A stretch of DNA of 63,655 bases, the filler included, from Asterionella formosa (taxonomy: Eukaryota): NCBI GenBank assembly GCA_002256025.1. It is 18 parts of 18 records of this genome, joined end to end, with 100 filler letters (N's around TTAATTAATTAA, not from the genome) between each part and the next. Parts side by side here need not be neighbours in the genome. Positions count along the whole stretch, not along the records: positions 60,225 to 63,655 come from NKIB01014159.1; 17 more parts are not named here. One strand, given 5' to 3'. The position numbers were made by a program, and so were the translations under genes. Shown one piece after another: positions 5,058 to 63,022 of the stretch. Each line of letters opens with the position of its first letter. Position 1 is the first letter of the stretch. The notes beneath the pieces are model-generated. The model had not been told where the DNA came from. It did no database searches and saw only the letters and a list, made by a program, of their open reading frames with translations.

Positions 5058-5270
5058 GTATAATTGTATCAATGGTGTTGCTTGGACGATGTGCATACGC
5101 AGCCAGCATAAAATTGAAGGAATAGTATATGCCATTTATATTATCACTGGTGCCTTGCCTTGCAGGCTTATTTTCGGTTATTTTATTAGTGACAACGGAA
5201 ATGATACCCGCGTAAAAACGTCAGTATCACTGATACCATTTTTGGAGGGGGCAAAAAAAGGTATCAATTT
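5058..5270 (+). repeat. About 210-250 bp sequence repeated in inverted orientation at about 5682-5932
   Basis: The ORF track gives near-identical peptides on opposite strands (5014..5292 + and 5703..5927 -), and the DNA arms are reverse complements. Confidence 0.9.
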
Positions 5271-23964: not shown

Positions 23965-24048
23965 TTTCAATCGAGGTTTTGAACACTTTATAGATTCGAG
24001 TAGGGCAGCTGAAGGCCGCAGCCACCAATCAAGGAACCAACGAACCCC

Positions 24049-24749
24049 ATGAGCGCCACCCCAGACGCAACGACAAGCGGCAGCTTAGCAAGTGGACGCG
24101 GCAGCACCGGTGGGAGAGGGCGAAGGGACAACCGTCCGCGCGGGAGCCATGGCGGCCGTGCAAGGACACAAGCAACAAGCAACAGCTTTGGCATTTTTAA
24201 GGGCAGCACAGAGGGCATGAACGGAAACGTATTTGAATGCTATGAAGAACAAAGTGACAGACGCCAGTACGCCAAAACGTTAGAAGTTCTAGACGGATAT
24301 GTGAGGAAAACACTGAAGTACTCTGAAGACCTTGCCCCTTTGTTTGCCGACACCATGGCGGTTCCCATGGTAGACATGCCAGATGACCTAGATGACGATG
24401 CAGGACTGACCATGAAAATGATTTTCGCAGAAGAAGTAAAAACGTATGTCAAGCGCAATCATACCCTGAAGAGCAACCTAGCAACAGTGTATGCGGTGAT
24501 TTGGGGCCAGTGTAGTGATGACATGAAGGCAAAGATCAAAACGCACGATGACTACAAGGACAAGACTGCCAACAACGATTGTTTTTGGCTTCTAAAACAG
24601 ATCAAGTCGATTACTCTACAGTTCGATCAGAGCAGGAATGGTTTCATTGCACTTTTGGACGCCCAGACCAGTTTCCTCAATTGTCGTCAGTTACAAGGAC
24701 AGTCCGCAGAAGACTACGTCGAGTGTTTGCGAGGATGGGCTGAGACCAT
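24049..24749 (+). CDS. Gag of a CoDi-type Copia retrotransposon, open as far as the contig end
   Basis: RG-rich N-terminus, FKGSTEGMNGNVFEC and IWGQCSDDMKAKIKTHDDY...WLLKQIK, typical of diatom Copia gag. Confidence 0.8.
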
Positions 24750-25085: not shown

Positions 25086-25500
25086 GTACCAGGATACCAG
25101 CAAGTTGCGGTAATTTTGCTGAAGCTAAAGATTTAGCTATCTTTATCCCAGATTAAAATGTTAGTTTAAGCAAAATGACCGCACCTTGCAGGTACTAGCG
25201 GTAGCTAACCTGGCTCGTACCACCTCGTGATACCTGAGTACAAGGTACCAGGGTACCTCTAAACTGGTTCCTGGTACGGAGCAGTAGCTGGTACCTGTTA
25301 CCAGGGTACCTTGTACCCAACGACTGGTTGTGGTACAAGATACAAGTACATACTAAGTATTGTTCTATCCATCAGAGCTAATGATACATGCATAGAAGAC
25401 TACCGGTACCTAAATACTTTAATGAACAAGATGGAGTACCAGGGTACCAGCGAGTTGCGGTACCGGTAATTCTGCTGAAACTAAATAATTCGCTATCTTT
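25086..25500 (+). repeat. About 60-bp imperfect direct repeat (25086-25144 and 25436-25500) in a GTACC-rich tract
   Basis: gtaccag..taccagc(a/g)agttgcggTA[CCGGTA]att(t/c)tgctgaa..ctaaa..gctatcttt. The second copy has an extra CCGGTA. Confidence 0.85.
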
Positions 25501-25525
25501 AATCTATATTTAATTGTTTTTTTCA

Positions 25526-28292
25526 GGTTCCTGCATTTGAACCCCTAGCTCGAGGTAGGGTTTAAAAACAATTAAGTCAGAGTAGTCAAACATTGACTTC
25601 TTACAAATAAAACGTAAATGTATATCGCTAAACGGAGCTTTCACCAATACACACCCTTTCCATATGCTTAAATACAGTCATTTATCAAAGTAGGGGTATA
25701 GGTCAACGCTATATGTTGTCAGGATATACGATCTGGCGAGAAACTGCAAAAAGGAGCTTCGGTTTTTAAAACTATGCTGAAAATAGTGGATTTTACTGGG
25801 CCAACTCGTTTATTTGGCCTAGTAAAAAAGACCGAAGTTCCTTTCTGCTGTTTCTCGCCGAAAGTTAACTTCTGGGGCTATATGAAGAAGATTACCTATG
25901 TACTTAACTCTTCTTCAAACCCTGCCAACGTTGAGCTATCGTCGTCCAATAATTCGACAATATCGGCCTTTTCAACAGTCACCAAAATGTCAGAATCAGA
26001 ATCACTAATCACTGAAACGTCATCATCGGAATAGGAGTCTTGTGATTCGATTTTTCGTCCTACAATCGCCTGTACAAAAAATTCCATTGTAAGTGCATGC
26101 TTCACTATTAATATTTTGATTGGTCAAGTTCAATTACTTACCGACAATTGATTGGCCTGGTTTGCGCGGTCTTGCAAACCCAAGCTGGCCACACTGGATG
26201 CACATGTAACATTTTCTTGGGTGTTGGCCGGTACAATATCCACTGTAGTAGGTAGCTGATCATCATTGATTATACGCACACCAGTGTGATCAGACACTTT
26301 GCCTGCCGGTACATTGAATGGACAGAGTGCGCTGCTTTTCCTTTGATGATCATTGCGGCCACAATGATTGCAGACATTTGTTCCTTTCTTTCTTGTTTCC
26401 TGATTTTCCCTTCTGGTGTTGAGCGCAGCACCAGAACCGTAAGTCTTACCTGATTTGTTATCTTGCCTTTCCTGTTTGACTGTTTCGAATCGTGCTGCAT
26501 ATATTTTTTCGCTTCATTTCCTCTTTCGTTTGAATTGTGCTTTATATGCTCCATTCTCACTTCGTCGCTTTTCTTTTTGTCTCCAGAAGGATTCTTGCAG
26601 TGCTGACATCTGCATTCCAAATTGCTTGTATAAATTCCTTGTGTATTGTGTTGCACCATGTGTGTGTTGCTCAGCAACCAAAGCCACTCGATATTGAAGG
26701 CCTCCAGATCCCGCAAACACCTTGTTTTTTGGACATCGTCACGACACTGCATTGTTCATTGCCTCATTAATCTGCGTGTCAAAGGGATGATGCAACGATA
26801 GCAGCTTTTCGCCTTCGACTTTCGTTGCAACATGCAGCATTAACCATTTCTATAAATCTTTTCCTTTTCCTTGTCATGATATTTTCTGTCACTAACCATT
26901 TTTCCTGCTTTTACAGGGCACCATGTCTCAGAGCAGTAATCATGGCAGCCAAATAAATGGTTGATCGGTGCCTTGGAGGAAATACTAAATTCTGCCAGAG
27001 AGAGGTTCCGGTTTTGTTTAATCCAAGCGCCATAGTAAACTTTCAACCGGAGACAATCTGCTTTTGAGGGACACTCGAGGGAGACTGGGCCATTGGATTT
27101 CATAAAAGCTGGGCGGAGAAGGACCCGTACTCTGTGGGATGGGTCAGACAGAAATGTACGTTTGGGTACAGTCAGTGGAAGGCATCCTTTGTGCGATTTT
27201 TTTAATCCTTTCAATGTTCTTGGCCATTGGAAGGATGGCTGTAGTTTCAATAACTCCTTATAGGACCACTTAGAAACAGCTCGAATAGTAGAATCATCAT
27301 CACAGATGATTGTAGAGTAGATAACATTGTTTTTCATTACTGCATCAATCATCATTTCTACACCAGCATCTGGTTCCATTGCTTTCGAACTACCAGTTAC
27401 ATGATTCTTGGGACAAACATGTTCCTTGATTGGTTTCTTGTACCACTGTATAGCCCTGTCGCACACATTACAGACCTTAGATTTCACTCTGTAGTCTAGT
27501 ATCTTTTTCGTGTAGCCGCCAATACAAAAAGCATGACCACTTACAGAGTTGTACTTATTCCCGCTGGAACGCTGCCAGCCCATATCGTAACTAACAGTGA
27601 GTCGAGGCATATTCAGTACAGACAAGCGATCCGTACCAGTCAGACTGTTCCACCACTGAAAATCACGTCCTTTGTCAGCCCAGTCTCCTCGTTCATGCAC
27701 ATTGAGTGTCAGATATATTTCCTCCTGACACGACTCTTTCATTGCAAGAGCGATTTCAGTAACTTCAGCGTTTCCTACCCGTTCCTCTACTGCACCAAAG
27801 TTACCTTGCGTAGACCAAAATCCAAAGGTAACTGGAAGATTCATTGCGGAGCAGATGATATCTGCATCTGCAGATCCCATTCCGGCTTCGTGACAACCCA
27901 AAATAAACTGTTTGTTGATAGAAAAGTGTTTTGATTCTATTGCGTTATTTCTTATCTCATCATTTCTGTCTCCATTGCTGTTGCTTCTTGCCGCTTCGAG
28001 TTTAGAAATCAGTTTCTGACAGGTCAAACAAGAGACTTTGAATTTGCTTGCCAAGCCGTAATTTTTGGTAGAGACAACAATCAACGGTTGTTTCATTGTT
28101 GAAATAAGAAAGTCAAACACATCCTGCTCCAGAAATGATTCACATTGCTGTTCAATGGACAGCTGTTGTTGTCTATTTGATGTAAAGTAAGTTACAAAGT
28201 CACGAAGTGATTGTTTGCAATATTCTTTTACAAATTTATTAACACAACTTTTGCAATGCGTATCTTCCTGCAGAAATTTCGACAATGTATTA
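25526..28292 (-). mobile_element. Kolobok/Mutator-like DNA transposon: pseudogenised DDE transposase (28292-25896) plus 3' end
   Basis: VSYDMGWQR..YNSVSGH..IGGYTKKILDY..KVCNVC..HVCPKNH.GSSKAMEPD..IICDDDS..SDPSH. After a frameshift, TQINEAMNN (catalytic Glu) and a CxxC-H-C knuckle. Terminus GGTTCC at 25526 is homologous to TTAA|GGTTTC at 60852. Confidence 0.8.
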
Positions 28293-29863: not shown

Positions 29864-30299
29864 CCTGGTAGTCTGACGAAAGGGGCCGATAAGAAGCGAG
29901 ATACAAAACCATTGTTATACTGGACACGACTGAGCGCGGTCTGAGCCGCATGTTCCAGATACTATACATACGACAAAGTAAACACAGGAGCACAGGAGTA
30001 TACGAAGAAACGGAATCCAGAATCAGATATGATGTAGTGCTTGATGTCGAAATTGAGCATCACATCATTACGTAGCAAATATCAACATACCGGTATGTGG
30101 CGGCGGGTATTGTGATCCACGTCTCACCAGCATTCTGGTACCAGGTACCAGGTAGTTGGTACATTATGTATCATGTTGTACTGTGGCTTGTGGGATTAAA
30201 AATGGAACAGCAATACCGGTACCTGCATTTGGACTTGTAACTGTAAAAGATTATGCACTATTCCTCTAGTGTTTCCATGGATAAATGCTTTTCTTGCTT

Positions 30300-30870
30300 G
30301 CGAAGGATCAACACCAATGCCACCAATGTCTGTCATCTTAACTGGGGATGGAAGCGTATGTGATGCTGATGCATTGTTACTATCATTTGCTTACCACCAG
30401 TTTGTCTACTTCATAATACATTGCCAGAACTGAGGAAACTGTATGAGTCTTGACCCACTTTACAGTACTAGCCCTGACTTTGTTCTCCAAGTATACCATC
30501 AAGAATCTGATGTGACACAGAATTTTGCAACCCTTCCTAGTAACCCAACAACCCTCCTCTGCCATTATGAAATGTAAATGGTAAACATCTCTACCTTGCA
30601 AAATCTTGAGGGGAGGAACATCATTCTTCACATTTACCAACCGCCTTTGCATCCACAAGTCCAAGGAACCAAGGCTCATATGGTAACCTCCTCCATGTCT
30701 GTGGTAAAACATGGAATTGGCCACAATACATACTATGTAGTGTAAACCGCTTTGGTGGTGCAATCATAGTATTGCCATCTCCACCAGTATTTCCAGGTCC
30801 TCCATGCATCACTGCAAGCTCTGCTCCTGAATGTAATGAATTTTTCGCTGGTGCTGCAACAGCTGCTGCC
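30300..30870 (-). pseudogene. Degenerate C-terminal fragment resembling stramenopile Crypton-like transposon proteins
   Basis: GQFHVLPQTW..P..LWM..VPPLKILQGRDVYHL..KILCHIRFLMVYLE, frameshifted. Recognised from motif memory only. Confidence 0.4.
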
Positions 30871-33800
30871 CTAAGGTCACTGGTCCCTTGACAAATTACA
30901 TCTCTACAATGCCAATTAATTTTCCATTATCATGATGGAGGGAAAAGAAACTATTTATTTAGCCATATCTACTTATGTACAGCAACTTTTACAATGCTAT
31001 TGCCCTGGGATCCAAAACCTATCCATTAAATTACTATGACAAGTGCTCCAGCCATGTGAAACGGAAATTCGTGACAAAACGTGTTATTCTTCCGGTTGGT
31101 ACGTATAAGGGTCAAACCAGTACAAGGTTGTCTGTTGAAGCTACACAAACATATGATTCCAACCACGACGCGATGCTGGGTTCCTCAGCAGGAAGAATCT
31201 TTGGTGCCGCTCCATCCATGACCATGCTGGAGGAGCTAAGATACCTCGACACAAGTACCGGTACCTGGTAACATGTACACAGACAAAGTACCTGGTCTCC
31301 GCAGTTCGCCGTACCTTGTTGTAGTAAGGCGCTGTGCAATTCACAAACTGTATACAGTGAAAGGTACTCCCTGGTACCTGGTAACGACATCGTACTCTGT
31401 ATGGCCAAACCTGTACCTGGTACTGGTACCAGGTATCAGGTACCCTGGTACATGGCACTCAGCGTGATACTATAGTCACCGCTACTAGGTCGGAGCCTTG
31501 TACCTGGTACAATATTGCATGTCATATACCCGTACCGCTGCGGATGACATGTGATCATTGGTGTGAAATCCACCATTTTTATAGCCTACCGATAGTAGCC
31601 GTACTCACTTATTACTGTCGTTGTGTTTGCTTCCGCATTCATCGCTGTAGTGAACCTTTTGGCTGAAGCTTTGTCGATAAGACGAACGTGTTAACCTGGA
31701 CTATCGGACTTGCCATTGTATTTTCATCAAGCTCCTATCACCATCATGCTCAAGGCAAGCGTGGCAACAACTCTGTACCTGATCCTCCTCGGGCAGATTT
31801 TGTATCTTGCCTCCAAGGAGGCTTACGAGATCNNNNNNNNNNNNNNNNNNNNNNNNNNNNNNNNNNNNNNNNNNNNTTAATTAATTAANNNNNNNNNNNN
31901 NNNNNNNNNNNNNNNNNNNNNNNNNNNNNNNNTTTTGGCATGTGACCATCTTGCAAATAGCGGCAATACCAGCAGTATGCCAGTTCAACAAAGTTCCGCG
32001 GACATATGCTGGAGGGATAATGCCTACATTATGTTGTTCAGTCATCTGGTACCTGGTACGGTATTTGCCTTAGTGCAATATGGCTGGATTCATCTTGTCG
32101 TCTCAGCCTTCACCACGACGAAAAATCGAATAATAGATCTCCACAAAAATGTAGAACGAGATGTTCATATATTTGGTACCAGTGCAAATGTATTAATCAA
32201 GCACGACTTGAAAACAATCGTAAAAGAATTATTGTAACAAACATTATTGACCACGAAAATTGAATTCGACAATAGAGATGGACAATTCAAAATGATAATG
32301 CTTCGAAAAGATTTGACATTTTCACAGTAGCTGCACAGCAAATATGACGTCTCAAAAAATACATTATTCATTGAAGCAAAAGATGTGAAACAAGTTATTT
32401 ATCAACTGAGAATTGATTGATGGTAATGCCATTTGTGTAGTCATCATGGATGCAGGTAGTATTGATGCTGACAAATGTGAAGCCTGCCAAAACTAGTATT
32501 GATGCTGACAAATGTGAAGCGTGTCAAAACTATTGCCTTAGTGTGCACGAGCCCCTTACAAGAGTTGTTTCTGCTCGTCAGCCTTTGAAGGGGCTGAGCA
32601 CAATGACCAAATGAAAAAAGTAACAACATCTGAGCACCCTTGTGATCGGCATTTTGGTGGCAATATTACTAAGTGCAATAATCAATATTTTGGAGTATGG
32701 TTAATTGATATCATACCAGGCTTACAAAAGGATAGTACCCAGGGTTTCCGGAGTTTACATCCAGCCATAAGTATTTACTTATTTGTGTCAAGGTGATGAT
32801 ACCAACATTCAACCGGCAAACTACATGAACTTCACAGAAAAGGTTGGGAGAGCAGTCAATTCCTCATGTGGAGCCTAAAGTTTGTCAACTCCACCAAAAA
32901 CAACAAATGAATGTCTTGAATGCTCCCCAGGACAAAGTTCAGCAGGTGCTGACAATTACAAGTACATGCAGCATGTAACCTCCATCTCTTGCAGGTTCTA
33001 ATGTGAACGCTAATCCAACAAGCCAATGTTAGTACTGGTGGTCCAGTGATCATGGTTTCCGTGTTCGTCTATTTGATTTCCATACAAGTACATGCATGTA
33101 CCCTCTGTTTTCTGTCGATGCCAATGTGACGCTAATCCTACAAGAAGACTGGCAATAGTTTCTGTGCTCTTAGTGCGAATTGTAAACATTTTCGAAATCA
33201 TCGGATTTGGAAGTGGACACAAATGAGCTTTCATCGACTTCAATGAGTCGTTTCAAAAATTTCCTCGATTTTAGAACGGCATCTTCAAGTTTAAACTCGA
33301 ATAGATTCTCATATTTGTCAAAATGATTGTTGTTGTCAGGTTCCATTCAGCCCTTTCTCAGAATTGATAGGAGGATAACGATATGGTTGGGCGGAAATAG
33401 AAAGAATGCAACAAAACGAAATTCCATTATTATACATGGGAGGGTAGCAGGCAGCATATAGTATTTATTGCAGTATACAGGTATATCATGCATGATTATT
33501 GTATCGTACTGGTATCTCAAGTATAATGCTAAAAAAGGTTGTGTGCACTAGCAAATAGTAGCCAGCTAGTAGTCGCAAATTGACAGTAGCTACTTTTTGA
33601 TGCATAATATTGCAAACATTGTTTGTGAATAATTCATTCATTTTTCATCATGGCACTATCAACTCAATGCGGGTAAGGTAATACTTGGTGTCAAGTACAA
33701 TCAAGCTAGATCCACATGAAAGAGCAGATGATGGCTAGCTATTATTCAATTATAATAAATTTTAAACTAATTACATATATATATACTAGCCAGAGCAATA

Positions 33801-35370: not shown

Positions 35371-35987
35371 NNNNNNNNNNNNNNNNNNNNNNNNNNNNNN
35401 NNNNNNNNNNNNNNTTAATTAATTAANNNNNNNNNNNNNNNNNNNNNNNNNNNNNNNNNNNNNNNNNNNNAATTGTATTGATCATAGAAACTGTTTGAAC
35501 CTACAACTAAATATCTTTTAATATTGCTATTTACGTTTTAGACTACGGAGAAAACGGTGGTGAAGTTGGTTTGCTCGCAGTGTTGGATTATCAAAAAGGG
35601 TCCGATGTCTTTTACTCCCCTCTAAGTAAAATCAGTCGTGGCTGTGTACATTGAGGGGTACGAGACACCATGTTTTACGGTATGAGGATGGACAAAATAT
35701 CCGGGATTAACGCATGAGGAATGAATTGCATCTTTTACGTAGAATTCTTCTACAAATTGAACAGAAGAACTATTTTGGCAGAAGAACTCGAGAATTACTT
35801 TTCAATCACGACGACAAGAAAAGGAGTTTTAATACAAAACAATTTTCTCTCGAGCAAGAACGAAACAAGAAGTTGATCGAATAAACAATAAGTTGATCGA
35901 ATAAACAATAGACACTTTCCATTACATTCAAGACGTCGCTCGAATAAACAATAGACGACTTCCATAACATTCAAGACGACGTTGACA

Positions 35988-38330
35988 ATGGCATCGTCGT
36001 TATTTGAAGAAACTGTCACACGATTGAAAAAAAATGATCGAAAGTTGACTGAACTTGATCTCGGTCGTAGTTCAATCGATGTTCATGGCGCAAAAGCCAT
36101 TGCAAAGGCCCTCAAGATCAATAAAGTTTTGACTAAACTTCAGCTCTATGGTAATTCAGTTGGTGATGCTGGCGCAGAGCACATTGCAGATGCCCTCAAG
36201 ATCAATACTGTCTTGACTACACTTTGTCTTGGAGTTAATAAAATTGGTGAAAAGGGTGCCGAGACCATTGCAGAGGCCCTCAAAGTCAATAAAGTCTTGA
36301 CTACACTTGATCTCCATGAAAATTCAATTCGTGTTGAAGGCGCAAATTTCATGAGAGATGCCCTCAAGGACAATGAAGTCTTGACTACACTTGAACTTGG
36401 AAATAATGCAATTGGTACTGAAGGTGCCAAAACCATTGCAGATGCCCTCAAGTTCAATTCTGTCTTGACTACACTTGATCTTAGAAGTAATGAAATTTTT
36501 CATGAGGGTGCCAAGGCCATTGCAGAGGCACTCAAGGTCAATAAAGTCTTGACTACACTTAATCTTAGAAATAATAAAATTGCTGATAAGGGTGCCAACA
36601 TCATTGCAGATGCCCTCAAGGTCAATAAAGTCTTGACTACACTTGATCTTGGAGATAATGAAATTGGTGATGAGGGTGCCAAGACCATTGCAGAGGCCCT
36701 CAAAGTCAATGAAGTCTTGACTACACTTAATCTTACAAATAATACAATTGCTGATAAGGGTGCCAAGACCATTGCAGAGGCCCTCATGGTCAATAAAGTT
36801 TTGACTACACTTAATCTTGGAGGATATAATGAAATTGGTGATGAGGGTGCCAAGACCATTGCAGAGGCCCTCAAAGTCAATGAAGTCTTGACTAAACTTG
36901 ATCTCAATGATGGAGCAATCGATTATGTTTTAGTCAAAGATATTCAACAAATGGTTGGGAGCCGCAAACCACCAGTAGCTGTCACAACTCTACCACCATT
37001 ATCTGATGGGAAAACAGGAACAGAATCGGAAAAATCTAGCAAACAGCATCGATTCATTCAGTTTTGTGAAAAAGTGTTACAAGTTTTGATTGGGCAAGGC
37101 AGAGAGTCTACTGCTAAGAAGACTCCAACGTCTCAGCTGACTGCCACTTCACCCCCTCCCCCCCCGCCCCACCAGAACACTAAGGAATACTTGAAAAAGA
37201 AAGACAGGTATACTGCTAAGATGACTCCAACGTCTCAGCTGACTGCCTCTTCAAATTTGTCTCCGATTCCTGCAATTCTTTCAGTGATGAAAAAGGATGA
37301 GCATAATTGTTACAGGCAAGAAGAAGGTCTCTTCCGGCTTGCGAACTTGGCTGTGAATGAAGAAAACATGAAAAAGATTACTGAAGAAGGAGGTATCATT
37401 ACAATTCTGTCTGCTATGACGAAATTTTCAGATAATGAAAAAGTCCAAGAATATGGTTGTGAAGCACTTTGTAACTTAGCTGTGGATGACATCAACAGGA
37501 AGAAGATTGCTGATGACAAAGGTATCCCTAAAATTCTGCAAGCAATGGATAAGCATTGCTACAGTGCTAAGGTACAACACTATGGTTGTGCAGCACTTTG
37601 TAACTTAGCTGTGAATAATGACAACAACAGGGTGATGATTGCTGATGCAGAAGGTATCTATATAATTCTGTCTGCAATGAGTATTCATTCCTCCAATGCT
37701 GATGTGCAACAATATGGTTGTGGAGCACTTTGGAACTTGGCTTTAAAAAATGAAAATAACAAAAACACGATTGTTGCTGAGGGAGGTATCACTACAATTC
37801 TGTCTGCAATGAAGACTAATTCCTCCAATGAAAAAGTCCAAGAAAATGGTTGTGGAGCACTTTTGAACTTGGCTTTAAAAAATGACAACTACAAGAAAAC
37901 GATTGTTGCTGAGGGAGGTATCACTACAATTCTATCAGCAATGAATAATCATTCCTCCAATGGAAAAGTCCAAGGAAATGGTTGTGGAGCACTTTGGAAC
38001 TTTGCTTTGAATGACAACTACAAGAAATCGATTGTTGCCGAGAAAGGTATCACTACAATTCTATCAGCAATGAAGAATCATTCCTCAAATGAAAAAGTGC
38101 AAGAAAATGGTTGTGGAGCACTTTGGAACTTTGCTTTGAATGGCAACTACAAGAAAACAATTGTTACTGAGGAAGGTATCAAAACAATTCGGTCTGCAAT
38201 GAAGACTAATTCCTCCAATGAAAAAGTCCAAGAATATGGTCATGCAGCACTTAAGAGCTTGGATTTGAATGAAACCAACAAGGTTTTTGCTGAAGCAGGA
38301 GGTGCAGATGCAATTCTTTCAGGAGTATAG
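35988..38330 (+). CDS. Intronless LRR (11 x 28-aa RI-like repeats) plus armadillo-repeat (8 x 42-43 aa) protein
   Basis: LTTLxLxxNxIGxEGAKxIAxALKVN units, a Pro-rich linker, then GITTILSAMKxHSSNEKVQExGCGALxNLA units. Confidence 0.92.
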   Translation: MASSLFEETVTRLKKNDRKLTELDLGRSSIDVHGAKAIAKALKINKVLTKLQLYGNSVGDAGAEHIADALKINTVLTTLCLGVNKIGEKGAETIAEALKVNKVLTTLDLHENSIRVEGANFMRDALKDNEVLTTLELGNNAIGTEGAKTIADALKFNSVLTTLDLRSNEIFHEGAKAIAEALKVNKVLTTLNLRNNKIADKGANIIADALKVNKVLTTLDLGDNEIGDEGAKTIAEALKVNEVLTTLNLTNNTIADKGAKTIAEALMVNKVLTTLNLGGYNEIGDEGAKTIAEALKVNEVLTKLDLNDGAIDYVLVKDIQQMVGSRKPPVAVTTLPPLSDGKTGTESEKSSKQHRFIQFCEKVLQVLIGQGRESTAKKTPTSQLTATSPPPPPPHQNTKEYLKKKDRYTAKMTPTSQLTASSNLSPIPAILSVMKKDEHNCYRQEEGLFRLANLAVNEENMKKITEEGGIITILSAMTKFSDNEKVQEYGCEALCNLAVDDINRKKIADDKGIPKILQAMDKHCYSAKVQHYGCAALCNLAVNNDNNRVMIADAEGIYIILSAMSIHSSNADVQQYGCGALWNLALKNENNKNTIVAEGGITTILSAMKTNSSNEKVQENGCGALLNLALKNDNYKKTIVAEGGITTILSAMNNHSSNGKVQGNGCGALWNFALNDNYKKSIVAEKGITTILSAMKNHSSNEKVQENGCGALWNFALNGNYKKTIVTEEGIKTIRSAMKTNSSNEKVQEYGHAALKSLDLNETNKVFAEAGGADAILSGV

Positions 38331-43103: not shown

Positions 43104-43879
43104 GTTCAGTCGGGGATGAGTGGGTGTGGAAGGTTGTACCGGTATGCCAAGCGTCGAGCCCTCACAAATTTATTTCGAAAATGTGATTTTGTGATTGCAT
43201 TCTCATCGATACACCGCACGACTACTACATGTACCCGTACGGTACATGCTTGTAGGTACTACGTGAAATACACCCCCGCCTGCCTGCTTGGTGACCAATG
43301 CACTTTCTTGGGATGCAGACTGATCATCGAACCAACCACATCATCGGATCAAGAAAAGCGATCTGTTGGACGTCGACCCCTGACGTCACTTGGAGACAAC
43401 TCCGATCATCCTGACGTCGTCAGTACCGATACCAGGGACCTGCCTCATCATGGTGGTGCTGATGGAGGAATCTGAGACTCTTTGGCGGCGGCGCGTCGCA
43501 CGCGCTGTGATGGCTGAGCGACGTATCATCCGCAAAGTCTACTACTGGTAGTTAGTACGGTAGTCTACCAGAGTACATGTACCGGTATATATTCTTTTCT
43601 GTGTGAGAGAGCGTTTTTAAATTTCAGTACGTATTTGTTGGTGGATTAGTGCAGTAACTGGGACCAGGTACCTGGTACCAGGTACCAGGTACCGGTGCGG
43701 AGTTGGGTAAAAGGTAGTCTACCTACTACCTGGTACCGGTAGGCTACATGATTACGGTAACAATTGTGAAATGGAAACGCCAACAAGGCAGCAAAAGCAA
43801 AGGCGCAATGCGTCTACGGTCACATACATATACCGGTAGTCATGACAAGGTGTGTCAAGAGGTGGAATAGCCAGTAAGA

Positions 43880-45139: not shown

Positions 45140-45980
45140 TCATTGCTCCGTTGGACAGTACTCCATCTGTACTTTCTTTCTTTCAATAAGATCAGTTATA
45201 TAAAAATACTTAATGTTGAATTGTTGCATGCATTTTCCCAAACTTGCTTTTCCATTTTCTTCCAGCTTCATTGAGCTAGTGCTGTCATGGTAGATCACAT
45301 TTATAGTCACTTTGTGTCCCTGTGCTTTGATAACCGGTTTTGTCCACAACACACCAACCGATTCTGCTTCAGTCAAACTTCTCATGATCACTTTCTGTTT
45401 CATAGACACAGAACAAAAAATTCCTTTTCCATATGACAATGTAGCTCTGCCAGTACAACTTTTAAAATCCTTGTGGACTGCAAATGCTGCATCAACATGC
45501 CATTTAATGCTCTGACTGTCATCGACACTCATGGAAGTCATTCTGACTTCTTGCTTTCAAGAAATTCATAATTTTGATTAATTTTAGTACCCAATTGCCT
45601 TCATTTCGTTCAGTAGCTCAGGTTGCCAAAAACATAATTCCTGATTGAATGGCCTGTCTTCCTCGCTTACAAAGGAACATTCCCTTCATAAGAACAAAAG
45701 TATGGAATACCTTTGTTGCCTTATCATCTTCTAGTTTATTCGATTTAGTATCAGCAATCAAACATAAGTCCGAACACAAGACGAAGAAAACGAGCGATGG
45801 TGCTGAGCAACAACAATGTGACAAAAGACCTGTTTCCATTTCCCAAAATATTAAGTGCTTGCCATATATTTCTCGAACTTTCAGATGCATCCTTTCTGTG
45901 ATGACAAGGAGAAACAAAAAATGCCTGCCTGTTTCTTCCAGAGAAACCGGCCCACAACAGAGTCCTTGTTATCTGGAAGC
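45140..45980 (-). pseudogene. Copia RT/RNase H remnant
   Basis: WHVDAAFAVHKDFKSCTG, RSLTEAESVGV, IYHDSTSSMKLEENGK, IKYFYITD..EYCPT. Confidence 0.88.
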
Positions 45981-46267
45981 NNNNNNNNNNNNNNNNNNNN
46001 NNNNNNNNNNNNNNNNNNNNNNNNTTAATTAATTAANNNNNNNNNNNNNNNNNNNNNNNNNNNNNNNNNNNNNNNNNNNNAATTATCACTCCACCATAGT
46101 AGTAGAAATGGAGGTATACCGCTACATGTAGTACAGGCGGCACTAATAGTAATAGTAGTATAGAGCAGAATCAATGTTTTCCTATCATCTATGATATGGC
46201 TTGCATTTGTAGAAGTCTCACACTTACTATAATTATTATGTAACTACTAAGTATGCATTGGATTCTA

Positions 46268-48106
46268 TTAGATCCATTCAAAATCAACATCGTCATCAAA
46301 GTCCCGTTGATTAATGCGGTCATTATAATCAATATTCCTTTCAGGAAAATTTGGTTGAAGTTATTCAACATATTGATGCATATCCTCTTTACTTACGTTG
46401 GGAAATGAGAAGTATGAGTGTGGGCAGATGATATTTGTGGTGGGAGTAGCAATTCCACTAGGATTCCTTCCATGTTCAGATCGATTCTTTTGTGAAAGTC
46501 CAGTGTAGATTTCCTTATAATAAACGAGTAAATCATCAGTCCATTGATCAGTGAGACCATTTGAAACTGAACTTTCTTCCCTCACACTATTTTTAATAAG
46601 TGGTTTCCCACCAATGTCGACAAAATCGGTAGAATGACGAATTTCGTTCTCTGAAATTTCATGCGTATCTGGATTGAAATCCAAATATTTTTGTTGCAAT
46701 CGGAATTTTCCTTTCAGCACCAAGAATCAAAATGCTTCTGTACTGGCATTGATCAGCGAACCAACAAAAAGTGATTGCAATTCACATTGTGCCCGAAGAC
46801 TTAGTTGAAATTTGGCTTGGTCACACCAGATTTGTCTCCTGTTAAAAATGGTTCTCCACGGCTTGTCCTGCCTATAAAATACACTGGAGCAAGAACATCA
46901 CGCCAGACATGGTATCCATGGCTTCCCCTGTCAATGTCCTTTGACTGCGCAAAACGATAAAGCGTCAACGCCCACCTAATAAAGTCATCAATATCCATAG
47001 TCTGGAATTCATATTCTGTTGGACCAGCTGGTGTGTCATGAATTATGTTAGCAATTTTAAATTGAGACATATTTGATAAGAATATAATCACCGACTCAAA
47101 ACATCATGCTTTCGGAGCATCTCCCTGCAAGAACTTACCTAAGATTCCTTTAAATTGATTATTCAATACATTCTGACATTCTCTTAACTTTTTTATGCAC
47201 ATGCCACCAAATGTTGATTTGATGTAATCTAAACGTGCCTTGTTGGTACGTTCAATGGTCTGATTCATTGGAAGTAGTGCATCAGAACCATTCGATATGA
47301 AATCGGCAAGCTCTGGGTCACTCTCCACTTCTTTGCCTAACTCCGGTTCCACTGTGTATAGCCGAGTTAGGCAACATTCCGCAAACCAATCCTGTTTGTG
47401 ATTGGAAATGCCTTTCATACTACTTGGACCAGATAGGGCGGGACGTTTGATTCTCTTTTGGGACCAGAACAAAGTAAATTTGATTGATATTCTGTTTTAC
47501 AGTACCTATTAATTCACGAACTATAACATCAAACTTACATGGTGTTCACAGCAAAACTTCTTGGTCTTGAAAATAAAACTCAACCTTTGTGACAATTGAT
47601 GGTTCAATTTTAGCTAAGCGAGAACGACGGCGTTCTGATAAGGCTGCTGAAATTGAAGAGTCTTGATAACCTCGTATGGACGAGTTTTGAACCGAATTAC
47701 GACCTTTGTAGTGATTGAGTTCATTGACCAATTGATAATATCCTTTGGCAAGTACAAAATTTTTATTATTCCTCAGGTTGTCATGTACTTGTTGGCCCGT
47801 GCGATTAGAAAATTTATGATATGGTACCATGTCATCCATCTGCATCCGGGAGTTATTAATGTCATCATCGACAGGAGCCATTTTTCTTGTATCAACAACT
47901 GAAGTAGAAACGTCATCATTGCTGTCAGTATCAATTACGGGATCCTTTGTACTAGTAGCTGATGGTGTCCCCATCGACGATGGGGTATTACCCCCAACGT
48001 CTCCCAATCGCCGATTGGGTTGCTTTGGATAATCGCCTATTCGCTTTTTCTTTGTAAACTCATTTTGGGACTTGCTTCTTTGTTCCATACTTGCAGTATT
48101 TACCAC
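46268..48106 (-). pseudogene. Interrupted long ORF of unknown, probably transposon-related function (copy at 49807-51645)
   Basis: Four consecutive ORF pieces separated by TGA codons and frameshifts. The STEAF*FLVL...W..D...YKEI segment resembles diatom transposon accessory proteins. Confidence 0.45.
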
Positions 48107-48138
48107 ATGTTGCTTGTTTCCATGAACCTCTTTATTAT

Positions 48139-48440
48139 ACGATCCTAAAACTATGATGATTTACTGTCCCGCTGCAGTAGCAGCAGTCATAGACATATGT
48201 TGTTATATTGCTTGCTTATTACTCCGACTACCACTTTTCAGTTTTACGATCATACGATCCTAAAACTATGATGATTTACTGTTCCAATGCAGTAGCAACA
48301 GTCCTGAACATATGGTGTTCTATTGGTTTTTAGTTTTACGATCATACTATCCTAAAACTATGATGATTTACTGTCCCACTGCAGTAGCAACAGTCCTGAA
48401 CATATGGTGTTCTGTTGCTAGTTTACTACTCCGACTACCC
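48139..48440. repeat. Three imperfect ~90-115 bp tandem units upstream of the ORF (copy at about 51678-51980)
   Basis: ATCCTAAAACTATGATGATTTACTGT(C/T)C..TGCAGTAGCA.CAGTC at about 48142, 48257 and 48348. Confidence 0.88.
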
Positions 48441-51400
48441 CCAGTATATCACTTACTACCTGCTACTGGTACTCTGTATATATAAGATATATTGTTATTG
48501 TCACATGATGTACCCGTACACATGAAGAGCTCCCGCCCAAAAAGGGGCTTAAACAATTTGCTACCAAAACCCTTGCGGCAATTGAACGGTCTAAATAATT
48601 AGTTTCAACGGACGTAGAAAATATCGATGCAAATAAATTTCAGAAACAATTCCGGTACACGTAGTCGTGGAAAACAATGGACATATAGTGCATTGAGTAT
48701 TTTCGAATTATGTATATGCGAGTATGATCATCTCAACCATATCAGATGTTCCATATCGAGAGCGCCTTTGAATTTTATAAATGTATTACACTTCATATAT
48801 ATATATATATTTACAAATTTTATTACTATATTCATGGCATATATATTTTTGAAATCGTTCTGTCATGTTAACAGACAATGATGCCTGCTGCTTCATGAAA
48901 AGATACGTCGTAGTAAAGCACATGACAAGAAAAAAGTTTACGCAATACATAACGAAAAACATTGTGGCTTCGACACATTGCGCATTCGAAGAATGGAGAA
49001 TGTTTAAGGTAATGAAGCCATCAATGTGGTAGCTACTTGGATGACAATCGTTGGGAGGCAGGATAACAACAAATTGTTAACTAAACGCACATTTCCTTTT
49101 TTCTCAGTTGATTCAACAGCTCGTTTCGCTTGTTGGGTAGCACCAATGTAAAACAAAACCAAATTGCGTAAGTGTTCTTGTCGCTCGTTGGACCTATTCA
49201 CTTCTGTTGGAACAAAAATTACAAAACGTTTACCTTCTCTCAAAGTTAAGCTGACAAAAATGAACCGGTAAGTTTTATTCGACAACATTGGATACCCGAA
49301 ACTTACGTATTCAAGAATGTGGCTTACTGACAAGTTACTATTACAGACTTATGCATCCTCACTTGCATTGATTTGTGGTAAGTGAAGCAAGAGGATACGA
49401 TGGAAGTGCGTGTTCTTGTGTCAATGTAACATCATGACTAGCTAACAAATCATTCCTTCTCATTGTTACTGTAACTGCATGAATAGGAAAATAAAACCGA
49501 TCAAACGGAATAGCCGGGGNNNNNNNNNNNNNNNNNNNNNNNNNNNNNNNNNNNNNNNNNNNNTTAATTAATTAANNNNNNNNNNNNNNNNNNNNNNNNN
49601 NNNNNNNNNNNNNNNNNNNAATTATCACTCCACCATAGTAGTAGAAATGGAGGTATACCGCTACATGTAGTACAGGCGGCACTAATAGTAATAGTAGTAT
49701 AGAGCAGAATCAATGTTTTCCTATCATCTATGATATGGCTTGCATTTGTAGAAGTCTCACACTTACTATAATTATTATGTAACTACTAAGTATGCATTGG
49801 ATTCTATTAGATCCATTCAAAATCAACATCGTCATCAAAGTCCCGTTGATTAATGCGGTCATTATAATCAATATTCCTTTCAGGAACATTTGGTTGAAGT
49901 GATTCAACATATTGATGCATATCCTCTTTACTTACGTTGGGAAATGAGAAGTATGAGTGTGGGTAGATGATATTTGTGGTGGGAGTAGCAATTCCACTAG
50001 GATTCCTTCCATGTTCAGATCGATTCTTTTGTGAAAGTCCAGTGTAGATTTCCTTATAATAAACGAGTAAATCATCAGTCCATTGATCAGTGAGACCATT
50101 TGAAACTGAACTTTCTTCCCTCACACTATTTTTAATAAGTGGTTTCCCACCAATGTCGACAAAATCGGTAGAATGACGAATTTCGTTCTCTGAAATTTCA
50201 TGCGTATCTGGATTGAAACCCAAATATTTTTGTTGCAATCAGAATTTTCCTTTCAGCACCAAGAATCAAAATGCTTCTGTACTGGCATTGATCAGCAAAC
50301 CAACAAAACGTGTTTGCAATTCACATTGTGCCCGAAGACTTAGTTGAAATTTGGCTTGGTCACACCAGATTTGTCTCCTGTTAAAAATGGTTCTCCACGG
50401 CTTGTCCTGCCTATAAAATACACCGGAGCAAGAACATCACGCCAGACTTGGTATCCATGGCTTCCCCTGTCAATGTCCTTTGACTGCGCAAAACGATAAA
50501 GCGTCAACGCCAACCTAATAAAGTCATCAATATCCATAGTCTGGAATTCATATTCTGTTGGACCAGCTGGTGTGTCATGAATTATGTTAGCATTTTTAAA
50601 TTGAGACATATTTGATAAGAATATAATCACCGACTCAAAACATCATGCTTTCGGAGCATCTCCCTGCAAGAACTTACCTAAGATTCCTTTAAATTGATTA
50701 TTCAATACATTCTGACATTCTCTTAACTTTTTTATGCACATGCCACCAAATGTTGATTTGATGTAATCTAAATGTGCCTTGTTGATATGTTCAATGGTCT
50801 GATTCATTGGAAGTAGTGCATCAGAACCATTCCATATGAAATCGGCAAGCTCTGGGTCACTCTCCACTTCTTTGCTTAGCTCCAGTTTCACTGTTGTGTA
50901 TAGCCGAGTTAGGCAACATTCCGCAAACCAATCCTGTTTGTGATTGGAAATGCCTTTCATACTACTTGGACCAGATAGGGCGGGACGTTTGATTCTCTTT
51001 TGGGACCAGAACAAAGTAAATTTGATTGATATTCTGTTTTACAGTACCTATTAATTCACGAACTATAACATCAAACTTACATGGTGTTCACAGCAAAACT
51101 TCTTGGTCTTGAAAATAAAACTCAACCTTTGTGACAATTGATGGTTCAATTTTAGCTAAGCGAGAACGACGGCGTTCTGATAAGGCTGCTGAAATTGAAG
51201 AGTCTTGATAACCTCGTATGGACGAGTTTTGAACCGAATTACGACCTTTGTAGTGATTGAGTTCATTGACCAATTGATAATATCCTTTGGCAAGTACAAA
51301 ATGTTTTTCCCTCAGGTTGTCATGTACTTGTTGGTCCGTGCGATTAGAAAATTTATGATATGGTACCATGTCATCCATCTGCATCCGGGAGTTATTAATG

Positions 51401-53999
51401 TCATCATCGACAGGAGCCATTTTTCTTGTATCAACAACTGAAGTAGAAACGTCATCATTGCTGTCAGTATCAATTACGGGATCCTTTGTACTAGTAGCTG
51501 ATGGTGTCCCCATCGACGATGGGGTATTACCCCCAACGTCTCCCAATCGCCGATTGGGTTGCTTTGGATAATCGCCTATTCGCTTTTTCTTTGTAAACTC
51601 ATTTTGGGACTTGCTTCTTTGTTCCATACTTGCAGTATTTACCACATGTTGCTTGTTTCCATGAACCTCTTTATTATACGATCCTAAAACTATGATGATT
51701 TACTGTCCCGCTGCAGTAGCAGCAGTCATAGACATATGTTGTTATATTGCTTGCTTATTACTCCGACTACCACTTTTCAGTTTTACGATCATACGATCCT
51801 AAAACTATGATGATTTACTGTTCCAATGCAGTAGCAACAGTCCTGAACATATGGTGTTCTATTGGTTTTTAGTTTTACGATCATACTATCCTAAAACTAT
51901 GATGATTTACTGTCCCACTGCAGTAGCAACAGTCCTGAACATATGGTGTTCTGTTGCTAGTTTACTACTCCGACTACCCCCAGTATATCACTTACTACCT
52001 GCTACTGGTACTCTGTATATATAAGATATATTGTTATTGTCACATGATGTACCCGTACACATGAAGAGCTCCCGCCCAAAAAGGGGCTTAAACAATTTGC
52101 TACCAAAACCCTTGCGGCAATTGAACGGTCTAAATAATTAGTTTCAACGGACGTAGAAAATATCGATGCAAATAAATTTCAGAAACAATTCCGGTACACG
52201 TAGTCGTGGAAAACAATGGACATATAGTGCATTGAGTATTTTCGAATTATGTATATGCGAGTATGATCATCTCAACCATATCAGATGTTCCATATCGAGA
52301 GCGCCTTTGAATTTTATAAATGTATTACACTTCATATATATATATATATTTACAAATTTTATTACTATATTCATGGCATATATATTTTTGAAATCGTTCT
52401 GTCATGTTAACAGACAATGATGCCTGCTGCTTCATGAAAAGATACGTCGTAGTAAAGCACATGACAAGAAAAAAGTTTACGCAATACATAACGAAAAACA
52501 TTGTGGCTTCGACACATTGCGCATTCGAAGAATGGAGAATGTTTAAGGTAATGAAGCCATCAATGTGGTAGCTACTTGGATGACAATCGTTGGGAGGCAG
52601 GATAACAACAAATTGTTAACTAAACGCACATTTCCTTTTTTCTCAGTTGATTCAACAGCTCGTTTCGCTTGTTGGGTAGCACCAATGTAAAACAAAACCA
52701 AATTGCGTAAGTGTTCTTGTCGCTCGTTGGACCTATTCACTTCTGTTGGAACAAAAATTACAAAACGTTTACCTTCTCTCAAAGTTAAGCTGACAAAAAT
52801 GAACCGGTAAGTTTTATTCGACAACATTGGATACCCGAAACTTACGTATTCAAGAATGTGGCTTACTGACAAGTTACTATTACAGACTTATGCATCCTCA
52901 CTTGCATTGATTTGTGGTAAGTGAAGCAAGAGGATACGATGGAAGTGCGTGTTCTTGTGTCAATGTAACATCATGACTAGCTAACAAATCATTCCTTCTC
53001 ATTGTTACTGTAACTGCATGAATAGGAAAATAAAACCGATCAAACGGAATAGCCGGGGNNNNNNNNNNNNNNNNNNNNNNNNNNNNNNNNNNNNNNNNNN
53101 NNTTAATTAATTAANNNNNNNNNNNNNNNNNNNNNNNNNNNNNNNNNNNNNNNNNNNNAAGTCACTGCTGGAACCCTTTCTGAGGACAATGGCCGTTAAA
53201 GGCCCAAGCAAGTTTCTGCAAATGGCACACCACTTCGCCTTCGACGACCAAACCCAGGACGGAGAGAGCGCCTCGTCCTCTTCCTTCTCTCACGCAGCTG
53301 AACCTAAACCTGAACCCATCCTGACGATGTTTAAAAATTAATCTGAATATGTACATATCGACACAAAACTGACACACCGGTTGTATAGTGATTGTATTTA
53401 TCTACACGAAGGCAAAATACCAGGTATATTGTACTACCCGGTATTGTAACCAGCATGTGTGAGCAAATCAAACCATCGACGTTATGTTGCCGGCGCGAGC
53501 CACAATGTAGACCTATAGAAACGCTTCATCTGTTTTGGCTACGGTCGGAGTCTGATCGACCAAATACCTGATATTTGGTCGATAAGGGGGGTCATTCTCG
53601 ACCAGGACCAATGCATATTTGGTCTTGGTCGTTTCGGATCATTTCGTGTAATGACCCGCAACTTCAATTGGCTTGGTATTTGGTCGATGCGGTGGCAATG
53701 CGCTTAGGGCCATTCTTATAATTTTTCATCAGTTATTACTTCATTTGAAAGTTTTTGAAAAATGTATCAGCAAGGTTACTGGATTTGAACTGAATTTCCT
53801 CCATTTTCCACATAAAATTGTATCACTCATTTGTGCCACAGTGTATCACGGTGTAACAGGGATCTTCAATGGCAACAAGCAAGCAGCAGCCAAAGATCAT
53901 GTGTATATCCCTCCAGACTGCCTAGATAAATGGTCAACCAGCAGTTAAATGAATATATAATATATCATAACAAAAAACCTCTCAAGAGCCATAGCATTA

Positions 54000-60124: not shown

Positions 60125-60851
60125 NNNNNNNNNNNNNNNNNNNNNNNNNNNNNNNNNNNNNNNNNNNNTTAATTAATTAANNNNNNNNNNNNNNNNNNNN
60201 NNNNNNNNNNNNNNNNNNNNNNNNGTTCGTTCTTCTCTACTTACCGTCAATTGATCCATCGGCTCGAAGATAATCCGCCTGAGTCTGGTGCAAAGCCGAA
60301 ATGTATTCTAGCTCCTTGACGTCGGCATGTGCGCCAATGGGTTGCAAAAAAACTACCATGGTGTTGTAATACCGATAGTATATCTCTATTTCTTTACTCA
60401 TGTCTTCCCAGACGAGGATCTATTCGAAAGGATCCTCGTGTATGTCCTCCTCGCGGCGGCCAGCCAGTATTGAAAATGCATGAAAAAATATTGATATTCG
60501 TTATTTTAATTTATTTGTAGCCATATATAAAGATGAATCTTTACCCGCGCATGACATCCAAGGAGTGGATAATATACCGGTATTCGGTTGTTCTCGATAC
60601 AAATGTAGGTACATTGATATTTATAGAAAAATATGAAACCAATTTTTTATCAATTCGCGTGCTCTGTCTGATCTAAGAAAAATATCATTAGATCGTGCGT
60701 ACAACGTTGTTTTGCATACCCATAATCCAAAAATTTGTGTTTGCGCTGACCAAATCGATTTACATACATGGAGCAGTCCTCGTGACGGATGGAAAATTTG
60801 CCCCGTAATGTCATCTACAAGAACTTCATGTCGGCCAATGCTTTTATTTAA

Positions 60852-61560
60852 GGTTTCGGCCTCGCAGTTAAACATCGCGAGCTCGGTTTTCTTCCAAAAT
60901 AATTTTATTATGTACTTGAATCTACACAGTACGAACAACAAAATAAAATAGTAAAAGGTAAAATTAGCTTTCACCAACGACCACTTTGCATACCGGTATG
61001 CTTAGATACAGTCATTCCTCGACTTTTGGGTATGATCTACCGGTATCTTCAGATATGGCAAGGACCTCATTTCTGGAGAGAAGTGGCAGTTATCCCGCTT
61101 GCAATCGTAACTATCCAAAAAATAGTCAAAAAGGGGGCCATGAAGCTTTAAAAATAATCTACGAGGGATAACTGCCACTTCTCTGCAGAAGTTAACTCCT
61201 GACGTTATAGGGTACACTGCTATCTATTTCATTCTTCATGAAACCCCGTAGATGTAGAGCAATCCTCCTCCAAAAACTCGACCCGATCGGCTTTTTCAAC
61301 AGTCGCCAAAATATTAGAATCAGAATTTGTACATGCAAAAATGTTCTTGAACACTTGGAGTCTTGTGCAGGAATGTTTCGCTAAAAAATTCTCAGTCCGA
61401 AAAGACTCCAGGGTAAGTTCCCATGTCACTACACATATTCTGATTGGTTGAATTGAATATATTCACCTGCTTCAGATTCGCTCAAGTATCCCGGTCTTGT
61501 AAAAACTCGCCAGCCACACTTGAACCACACGTATTAGATGTACTGGCTGAATCCTGGTTG
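60852..61560 (-). mobile_element. 3' end of a Kolobok-like element with a TTAA|GG terminus
   Basis: TTAA (60848-60851) then GGTTTCGG. Encodes SDSNILATVEKADRVEFLEED.STSTGFHEE*, homologous to the C-terminus of the 25896 ORF. Confidence 0.75.
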
Positions 61561-62092
61561 GTAAAATCAGTACCGGTACTACCGGTAGTACATCCTGTCC
61601 TCCATCATGGTGAACCAATATTGTGTACTACTGGTACCTGGTGCTCCGAGTTCCAGTAGGTCTATGGTGGCGCAAATATGGTGCAGCAACAATATGACGT
61701 CAGCAAGGAGTGCCTTACCAGTAGTTAAAAATTCATTACCGGTAGTAACCTATATATATGATACAAAATGCTAGCAATATTTTATTAGTACCGGTATGTC
61801 CTATCACATGTATGTACCGGGTAGCCTAAGGCCGTTGGCTACTACAAAATACATATCTTATATGAATCTGATCGTGATCCTATGTAGAAAATATCACTAC
61901 GGTAGTGCAGGCCGTAGCACGGATTTTATATATGGATAGTCTGTTGGTGCAATTTTGGTTTCTCTAAGTAACAGTGGTGCAATCGGTGGTGCAATTGTGG
62001 TGCAAATGCCAATGGGCAGTTGAATTTACGAATAGTTTTCTCTTTTTCAACCCTGTTTGGGAAAAGTCCCGAAATACCGTTACTCTGGGACT

Positions 62093-63022
62093 CCGGTACT
62101 GATTTACGACATACCGGTATATACCTTTGTGCGTGGAGTGATACTGAAACTACAAACAGCAACGTAGATTCATTATCAACAAATAAACAAGAGCCATGAG
62201 CATGCATGTTGGCATACTCCTATATAATTTATATATGTGTTTTGGCATTGAGCAAAATTGTGTCTACATTCAGCAATGTAGAAAAAGCATAAACATTCAA
62301 ATATATATTTTTCAAATGGAATTCTATCAATCTGGCCCCGATTCCTATTTAATTCAAATATTCAAATGGACACTTGAATCGTGGGAATCCCTGTTCCACG
62401 CCGTTTGTACAACCCTAGCGTTATTTTCTACGAACTAGGGTTAAGCCGGGGCTGCAACTTTAAGGTTTTTTTTCTTTTCTTCACCTTTCTCAGAAGTCGA
62501 ATATTTTAGCGTTTCACGACCCCCCCTATTGGCTGATGGGAAACTGCCGCAGTTGGTGATACCTGCTACCAGGTAGGGTACCTGGAAATTGCGGTCATCA
62601 TTTTGCTGATATTTATAATGCGACGCAGGACAGGCGTTGATTAACATTGAAAACGTCATCAATTCATTCTTTAAGGTTGCTGCCCCGGCTTAACCCTAGT
62701 TTGGAGAAAATATCGCTAGGGTTGTAAAAACGGCGTGGAACAGGGAGTTTTCTACTATGAATTCCCATGATTCGAGTATCCATTTGAATATTTGAATTAA
62801 ATAGGAATCGGCGCCAGATTGATAGAGTTCCATTTTAAACAAACAAAAATGATATTTAAACGTTTATACTATATCCGCATTGCTGAATGAAGACATTATT
62901 CTGCTGAACGCAAAAACACATGTATAAATCAGGAGTACGCCAACATGTCCGCTCATCGTTCGAGTTTAGACGATATATTGAATCTACGCTGCTGTGTGTA
63001 GGCATGATAAAAATCAGAACGG
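62093..63022. mobile_element. Foldback/MITE with >300-bp imperfect inverted arms (about 62150-62465 and 62670-63001)
   Basis: The arms are reverse complements over long blocks (e.g. CTAGGGTTAAGCCGGGGC / GCCCCGGCTTAACCCTAG). The right end reads ATCAGAACGG|TA; the outer left boundary is uncertain. Confidence 0.8.

Follow-up and report, generated by a model that had tools for sequence, protein, structure and literature searches.

What has written the 8-letter word TACCGGTA so often at TA dinucleotides in the non-coding DNA of the diatom Asterionella formosa? The question was raised by positions 60991 and 61038 of the window, the whole stretch of 63,655 nucleotides analysed here (assembly GCA_002256025.1). 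The window is made up of 18 contigs of 3431-3454 bases each, joined by an N-TTAATTAATTAA-N linker, and according to Pfam its ORF products include a chlorophyll-binding protein, a heat-shock factor, a mitochondrial carrier, copia-type retrotransposon pieces and a Mutator-like transposase. At 35955-38330 (+) a 791-residue protein is encoded in which armadillo repeats come after leucine-rich ones, and a broken copia-type retrotransposon lies at 7975-10555 (-), with gag, zinc knuckle, protease-region and RT matches; the broken pieces at 24013-24747 (+) and 45140-45556 (-) are copia-like by eye only. Two contigs, 46081-49519 and 49620-53058, are 99% identical over their full length with 22 substitutions, representing alleles or a recent duplication, and no scar-type indels separate them.

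An initial annotation of this DNA had counted more than twenty exact copies of the word by eye, where about one was expected by chance. The count stands at 31, against a mean of 0.32 (maximum 2) in 100 dinucleotide shuffles and expectations of 0.58 and 1.74 under Markov models of order 2 and order 3, and TACCGGTA is the most over-represented 8-mer of the window. CpG is depleted across the window (observed/expected 0.74, with GpC at 1.00), as methylation decay in repeats would lead one to expect; that an 8-mer containing CG is in excess is all the more striking. Several related words are also enriched, namely TACC(A/T)GGTA (25 versus 0.66 expected), the 4+2 type TACCAGGGTA (6 versus 0.11), TACCTGCTA, which reads TA-CCTGC-TA (5 versus 0.4), and TACATGTA, whose presence had likewise been noted by eye (7 versus 1.8-2.3, two of the seven in one duplicated contig pair). 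The TACCAGTA/TACTGGTA words (11 versus 3.05) form the largest one-mismatch class of TACCGGTA; a separate 3+1 scar class is inseparable here from a CpG transition of TACCGGTA, and their excess may reflect decayed TACCGGTA rather than a scar type of its own. All one-mismatch neighbours of TACCGGTA amount to 41 against about 16 expected, which suggests that scars have long been accumulating and decaying. Together, the scar-type words TACCGGTA, TACC(A/T)GGTA, TACCAGTA and TACCAGGGTA number 73, or 1.18 per kb, and they are unevenly spread, 15 of the 18 contigs being not all alike and five having neither TACCGGTA nor TACC(A/T)GGTA.

The copies that bear on the origin of the word lie mostly in the last contig (60225-63655), which is present in runs from an algal metagenome and freshwater samples. 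We compared it with four of the 23 runs listed, the other 19, with small shares, being left unused as evidence; run X1 may be the source sample of the assembly. Three short contigs, L001-L003, were the yield of one metagenome scan, and L002 is an independent assembly. The relevant features, none with an assigned strand, are the following.

60852-62459: host repeat, high-copy and non-coding (from the colinear full copy L002, its ends and run depth).
62675-63005, 5314-5594, 6313-6452, 25636-26002 and L001-L003: other stretches of the host repeat (from similarity).
60991-60998: TACCGGTA scar, six bases gained at one TA in the host repeat (from empty copies).
61038-61045: TACCGGTA scar, six bases gained at one TA in the host repeat (from empty copies).
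61571-61587: two adjacent TACCGGTA scars, at 61571 and 61580 (from run consensus and L002).
61716-61723: TACCAGTA, six-base gain at TA, a 3+1 scar or a CpG-decayed TACCGGTA (from run contigs).
61737-61796: two more TACCGGTA, at 61737 and 61789, probably scars (from shorter run records).

The host repeat is flanked by TTAA (60848-60851 and 62460-62463) and has purine-purine ends of the RR...YY form, one flank in L002 reading CTAA. TTAA flanks with RR...YY ends are the end rule of Kolobok (PMC9587614), and from these ends the repeat appears Kolobok-like. It measures ~1.2 kb without an insert of ~410 bases at ~61651-62064; this insert is multi-copy, not in L002 and skipped by X1 contigs, has no obvious terminal repeats and bears four scar-type words. 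The summed depth of the host repeat in X1 reaches 0.6-1.5 million against ~500 for single-copy pieces, a rough figure that is not a copy number and that suggests copies in the order of a thousand or more. On the minus strand, an ORF at 26840-28291 has a DxxH motif and matches the Pfam family PF20700 of Mutator-like transposases (E 8.5e-41); this family presumably also covers Kolobok-type enzymes, and the ORF may have the TTAA-flanked repeat as its partner. Additionally, a young long inverted repeat at 5056-5935, with arms of ~260 bp that are 95-97% alike, encloses a piece of the TTAA-flanked repeat and adjoins an unassigned 439-codon frame at 3555-4872, and in the single-copy stretch 60225-60795 the window is shorter than an X3 contig by 14 bases and than an X9 contig by 8. 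For the question at hand, the host repeat is a recorder of scars, and its own TTAA-flanked ends cannot make them.

Three pairs of filled and empty sites had been read by eye, and all of them proved to be real. At 60991, filled against the empty sites at 6317 and 25661, the printed sequence has plain TA at 6320-6321 and 25663-25664, the blastn alignment ending at 60992, and the full copy L002 shows a six-base gap. Among the best 12 of 226 indel rows, the six-base-shorter state of this site was found in at least 32, 5, 6 and 3 contigs of the four runs; in X1 it accounts for at least 212214 of 395397 in summed depth, with further short records among the loose ends. Some run contigs are shorter by 3 or 4 bases at 60991-60995, and L003 reads TA-TA-TA at 60991, which may be bare duplication or slippage. 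The scar at 61038, paired with 5551-5565, appears as a six-base gap against 5557-5558 in the blastn self-alignment; it is also empty in L002 and L003, and the loose-end consensus at 61039/61044 is short in four runs. The third pair, 25461 filled and 25111 empty, gives a six-base gap in the blastn self-alignment as well.

The remaining sites follow the same pattern. At 61571/61580, the loose-end consensus of 58 X1 records is TA-C-TA (agreement 0.66); the scar at 61571 is common to the window and L002, and at 61580 L002 has a different word. The six bases at 61716 are absent in at least 17 X1, 2 X3, 1 X6 and 1 X9 contigs. Over 61716-61796, the window exceeds both X9 record 28 and X3 record 13 by 18 bases, a difference that we infer to be three scars of six bases. 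L002 also bears a TA-CTGG-TA gain of its own where the window has plain TA (62094-62099). Separate copies of the host repeat thus carry separate scars, which indicates that the long state is derived; the short state is that of the family in L002, L003, the window copies and the run contigs. Judged by the other copies and the run consensus, the filled state is derived at 60991, 61038, 25461, 61580 and 61716.

Fixed-length indels at TA were expected in repeat alignments if the words are footprints, and we surveyed non-coding repeats in 15 pairwise alignments, which span 7532 columns with 383 substitutions and contain 21 indels of one base and 32 of two or more. All four six-base indels are of the TA-CCGG-TA or TA-CTGG-TA form, yet such gains make up only 4 of the 32 longer indels; the other 28 are of other kinds, some of them counted twice because L002 served as the common reference. 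In the window, L002 and the run contigs, the scars are gains at a single TA with TA left on both sides. The inserted letters CCGG do not repeat their flanks, and slippage and hairpin-type inverted duplication are therefore excluded at these sites.

The search for a TA-bounded element with CC...GG ends, which the initial annotation had called for, was made by scanning every TA pair within each contig for inverted pairs whose symmetry stops at TA. Twelve such pairs were found in the window, two of them starting with CC, one an artefact and one an element that is a candidate maker of the scars and has the following relatives.

25097-25192, no assigned strand: 96-bp non-coding element, TA|CCAG...CAGG|TA, with imperfect terminal inverted repeats (from the TA-pair scan).
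25447-25526, plus strand: left part of a diverged copy of the 96-bp element (76% identity to 25086-25170, with one six-base gap).
25461-25468, no assigned strand: TACCGGTA scar within the diverged copy's terminal repeat (empty at 25111-25112 and in L001).
62581-62615, plus strand: TA|CCTG end similar to the 96-bp element's terminal repeat (from a fuzzy match).

The terminal repeats of the 96-bp element have 3 mismatches over 26 bases including TA, and the symmetry ends outside TA. A second full copy lies at 1581-1679 of L001 with a different right flank, and the CCTG end at 62581 is cut off downstream by the second end of the TTAA-flanked repeat (from 62675). The element thus has the features of a MITE, being short, non-coding, bounded by terminal inverted repeats and present in more than one copy. 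TA stands on both sides of both full copies, whose right flanks differ and whose left flanks are alike; no empty site was found in the window or L001-L003, so that a duplication of TA is presumed for this element. In all three copies the left flank is a TACC(A/T)GG word; either the copies landed in old scars or the true left end is further out than the one given here. The inner bases of the scars are the terminal bases of this resident element, and its CCAG/CCTG ends account for the enriched 2+2, 3+2 and 4+2 variants and for TA-CCTGC-TA. Another candidate, TA|CCAGG...CCTGG|TA at 30139-31383, was rejected, as its arms are two GGTACC chains without further similarity, and no TA|CCG-ended pair occurs among the 12 TA-bounded inverted pairs of the window.

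According to the above-described copies, TACCGGTA and its relatives are probably excision footprints of one or more CC-ended elements of the Tc1/mariner/pogo group, repaired uniformly and inherited. The earlier proposal that a TA-targeting element with CC...GG ends has inserted and excised here is supported in this sense, with the excision itself inferred. In this group, the cut in the non-transferred strand falls a few bases within the element, and end joining produces footprints that consist of the first or last 2-4 element bases between two TAs (PMC6943129). Insertion at TA would duplicate the TA, as is established for the group, and a cut 2-3 bases inside the ends, also established for the group, would here leave the donor with TA-CC(W) 3' overhangs. 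CC and CC overhangs cannot pair, so they would be filled in and blunt-joined to give TA-CC+GG-TA, while the CCA and CCT overhangs expected from the ends of the 96-bp element could pair through their last bases and give TA-CC(A/T)GG-TA. The predicted product, a net gain of 6 or 7 bases at a single TA of non-coding DNA, is what the compared copies display. Eventually, in a single-celled and mostly mitotic alga, each repair would be inherited, scars would pile up as elements move on, and renewed insertion at the TA of old scars would give rise to GGTACC-rich chains. Of the five defining features of a canonical Tc1/mariner footprint, three were found, namely the gain at TA, the derived long state and the inner bases that match an element. 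No Tc1/mariner/pogo transposase was found in 154 window ORFs (15 + 139, of 75 codons or more and outside 49620-53058), and among the rows listed for the 3431 bases in four runs, with 1627 loose ends and 139 joints standing apart, no locus was seen empty, element-filled and scarred.

The arrangement of the words offers further evidence on their origin. Chained copies, in which neighbours have a TA in common, lie at the following places (no strand assigned; from the cluster listing).

6846-6877: chained scar array, TA common to neighbours, middle A/T in mixed orientation.
13373, 30137, 31414, 43667 and 63021: further chained arrays.

As many as 15 of the 25 nine-mers but only 3 of the 31 eight-mers are chained, the other 28 eight-mers being isolated. 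It seems that one agent may not explain both, since their chain context differs, and the chains with mixed orientation suggest re-insertion into scars, perhaps by two agents. Around TACCGGTA, T stands beside TA in 3 of 62 flanks versus 24% expected (per-test p 8e-5), A occupies position -3 in 29 of 62 versus 32% expected (per-test p 0.02), and the first flanks are complementary in 15 of 31 cases versus 27% expected (per-test p 0.013); these biases fit a symmetric target. Read by eye, the sequence at 63020 had suggested a stack of three scars on an otherwise plain TA, but alignment did not confirm this.

Alternatively, short words could be written at TA without a full cycle of insertion and excision, for example by abortive integration, by end-capture by a transposase or by short-template repair of a TA-specific cut, after which slippage and template switching among near-palindromic 7-base units could lengthen the chains. 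We know of no activity that writes such words at TA, which counts against this explanation. It would suit the mostly chained state of the nine-mers, the lack of a three-state locus among the rows listed and the excess of scars over visible elements, ~25 to 1 or more (62 kb hold 73 scar-type words and three CC-ended elements, one whole and two partial). The ratio is reversed in C. elegans isolates, with 93 insertions and fewer than 10 deletions (PMC4490562). The products in the window are also far more uniform than in the worm germ line, with 26 excision products in 103 (PMC4490562), or in rice, where 8 of 94 excisions were perfect (PMC4423477); inherited, uniform end-joining in a mitotic single cell would explain this difference under the excision-footprint explanation. 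The ends of a resident element, however, spell the inserted letters and their length variants, and the mixed orientation of chain units is not given by plain slippage. Weighing these points, we hold word-writing without a full cycle to be rather unlikely.

Where the words lie in relation to genes bears on a possible function. The initial annotation had suggested that a frame-preserving scar could add dipeptides to proteins, and this found no support in the distribution of the words. Long stop-to-stop ORFs hold 1 of the 31 eight-mers and none of the 25 nine-mers, against 24% of all TA (963 of 3952), so that scars avoid long ORFs (1 of 56, p 3e-6), and the sole ORF-located scar, at 43137, is upstream of the first ATG. 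For the specific case proposed at 18449, the motif does lie inside stop-free frames of 84 and 93 codons, but no Pfam family matches these frames, and no credible homologue was found. The sole match among 1.84 billion proteins was rejected as a homologue, being an unrelated 1756-residue repeat protein with a repeat-summed match of ~30% identity; it shows no gap at the scar site, and the search used one of the two frames. One non-coding region is rich in the words.

43105-43879, no assigned strand: divergent intergenic region, with a light-harvesting gene on one side and a mitochondrial-carrier gene on the other (from gene families and sequence), with 4 TACCGGTA, 4 TACC(A/T)GGTA and 2 TACATGTA.

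The confinement of the words to non-coding DNA and their density in this region would be expected if the motif were a selected transcription-factor site in promoters that arose by ordinary mutation. This explanation also draws on Phytophthora infestans, in which the motifs M94, TACCGGTA, and M93, TACATGTA, are over-represented in promoters (PMC3597505), and on PsMyb37, which binds TACATGTA (PMC11134190), a binding shown only in P. sojae. Against it, the six bases turn up ready-made within high-copy repeats and within a terminal repeat, places in which selection for a site is not expected, and the gap-type pairs largely refute an origin by ordinary mutation; we consider it very unlikely. A binding function of the scars could follow their origin without explaining it.

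That the long state is instead ancestral, with plain TA arising by microhomology deletion between TAs, or that the pairs are assembly errors, is highly improbable: a collapse of TA-xxxx-TA is possible through the repeated TA, the scar at 61571 is common to two copies and the assembly is fragmented, but at 60991 and 61038 all other full copies (window, L002, L003) are without CCGG and the short state is the commonest in the runs, one word would need to be the original state of numerous unrelated sites, and L002, as an independent assembly, bears scars of its own. The copies compared point to filled copies as terminal branches of the repeat family.

Returning to excision footprints of CC-ended elements as the preferred explanation, we compared the scars with known systems. 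Like canonical Tc1/mariner footprints, they consist of TA, a few terminal element bases and TA, with a fixed-length gain at TA. The Sleeping Beauty footprint is TA-C(A/T)G-TA (PMC6943129) and that of Tc1 is taCATGta (cited in PMC3520976), whereas the inner letters here are CC+GG or CC(A/T)GG; moreover, canonical footprints are assay products, while the diatom scars are a standing feature at ~1.2 words per kb. The oomycete pogo family Passer has a stramenopile host, a TA target and terminal repeats of 20-37 bp (PMC7386202 and its supplement 3). In the 17 of 49 stramenopile rows of supplement 3 that the comparison covered, 10 of 15 Passer rows end in CCG, 4 in CTG and 1 in ACG, the sequence cell of one CCG row disagreeing with the listed end, and both Lemi rows end in CAG. 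A 2+2 scar of CCG ends would be TACCGGTA, and TACCGGTA alone cannot tell the third base. Unlike Passer, which is defined by CCG ends and a DD35D transposase, the 96-bp element is non-coding and ends in CCA/CCT; none of six diatom names tried was found in the PMC7386202 supplements. Sailor (DD82E) belongs to the IS630-Tc1-mariner group, occurs in stramenopiles and often has CC ends, but its target duplication is mostly TATA, while the diatom scars need only TA (PMC8533490). Stowaway-type MITEs (rice Mariner), which are short, non-coding, TA-flanked and moved in trans, are like the 96-bp element, and differ from it by their CTCCCTC ends and by rice excisions that are mostly ragged (PMC4423477).

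The closest likeness in sequence is Phytophthora M94, the same 8-mer TACCGGTA, which is very abundant and upstream of genes in another stramenopile (PMC3597505, PMC3520976). There, M93 and M94 were read as transcription-factor sites, and a Tc1 footprint origin was named for the Phytophthora motif and set aside by argument (PMC3520976), whereas in the diatom the insertion origin is seen in filled and empty copies. From the listed ends, M94 and M93 may be 2+2 scars of Passer (CCG) and Lemi (CAG) ends, respectively. In the mostly open-access literature searched, preprint supplements lying outside its scope, we found no report of genome-wide excision scars in diatoms, and TACCGGTA as a whole word appeared only as the P. 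infestans promoter motif M94. A viral collection gave 0 matches to the chain pattern and 0 to the terminal-repeat pattern; a double-TACCGGTA pattern matched 121 loci in it, none of them window-like, the 80 long ones all having at most 0.73 words per kb. Prokaryote genomes gave 0 matches to the terminal-repeat pattern.

The footprint mechanism itself is already known; what is unusual is its density here, about once per kilobase of non-coding DNA. A broader proposal, which we put forward tentatively and regard as somewhat doubtful, is that uniform, inherited excision scars might rank among the main writers of stramenopile non-coding and promoter sequence and might seed transcription-factor sites, with CC-ended elements stamping TACCGGTA into diatom DNA and re-targeting their own scars, and with Phytophthora M94 and M93 as scars of Passer and Lemi. 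If it is true, a validated regulatory motif, the PsMyb37-bound M93, would be a co-opted transposon footprint. If the excision-footprint explanation holds, the commonest non-coding 8-letter word of this genome would be a tally of past transposon departures. Scars would record excision rate, target choice and repair pathway in a form readable without finding the elements, and small fixed insertions would be a real mutational class in diatoms, at ~4 for every 380 substitutions in the surveyed alignments. A search for motifs in diatom and oomycete promoters could then return scars, and there would be a testable route by which one binding site came to stand before thousands of genes.
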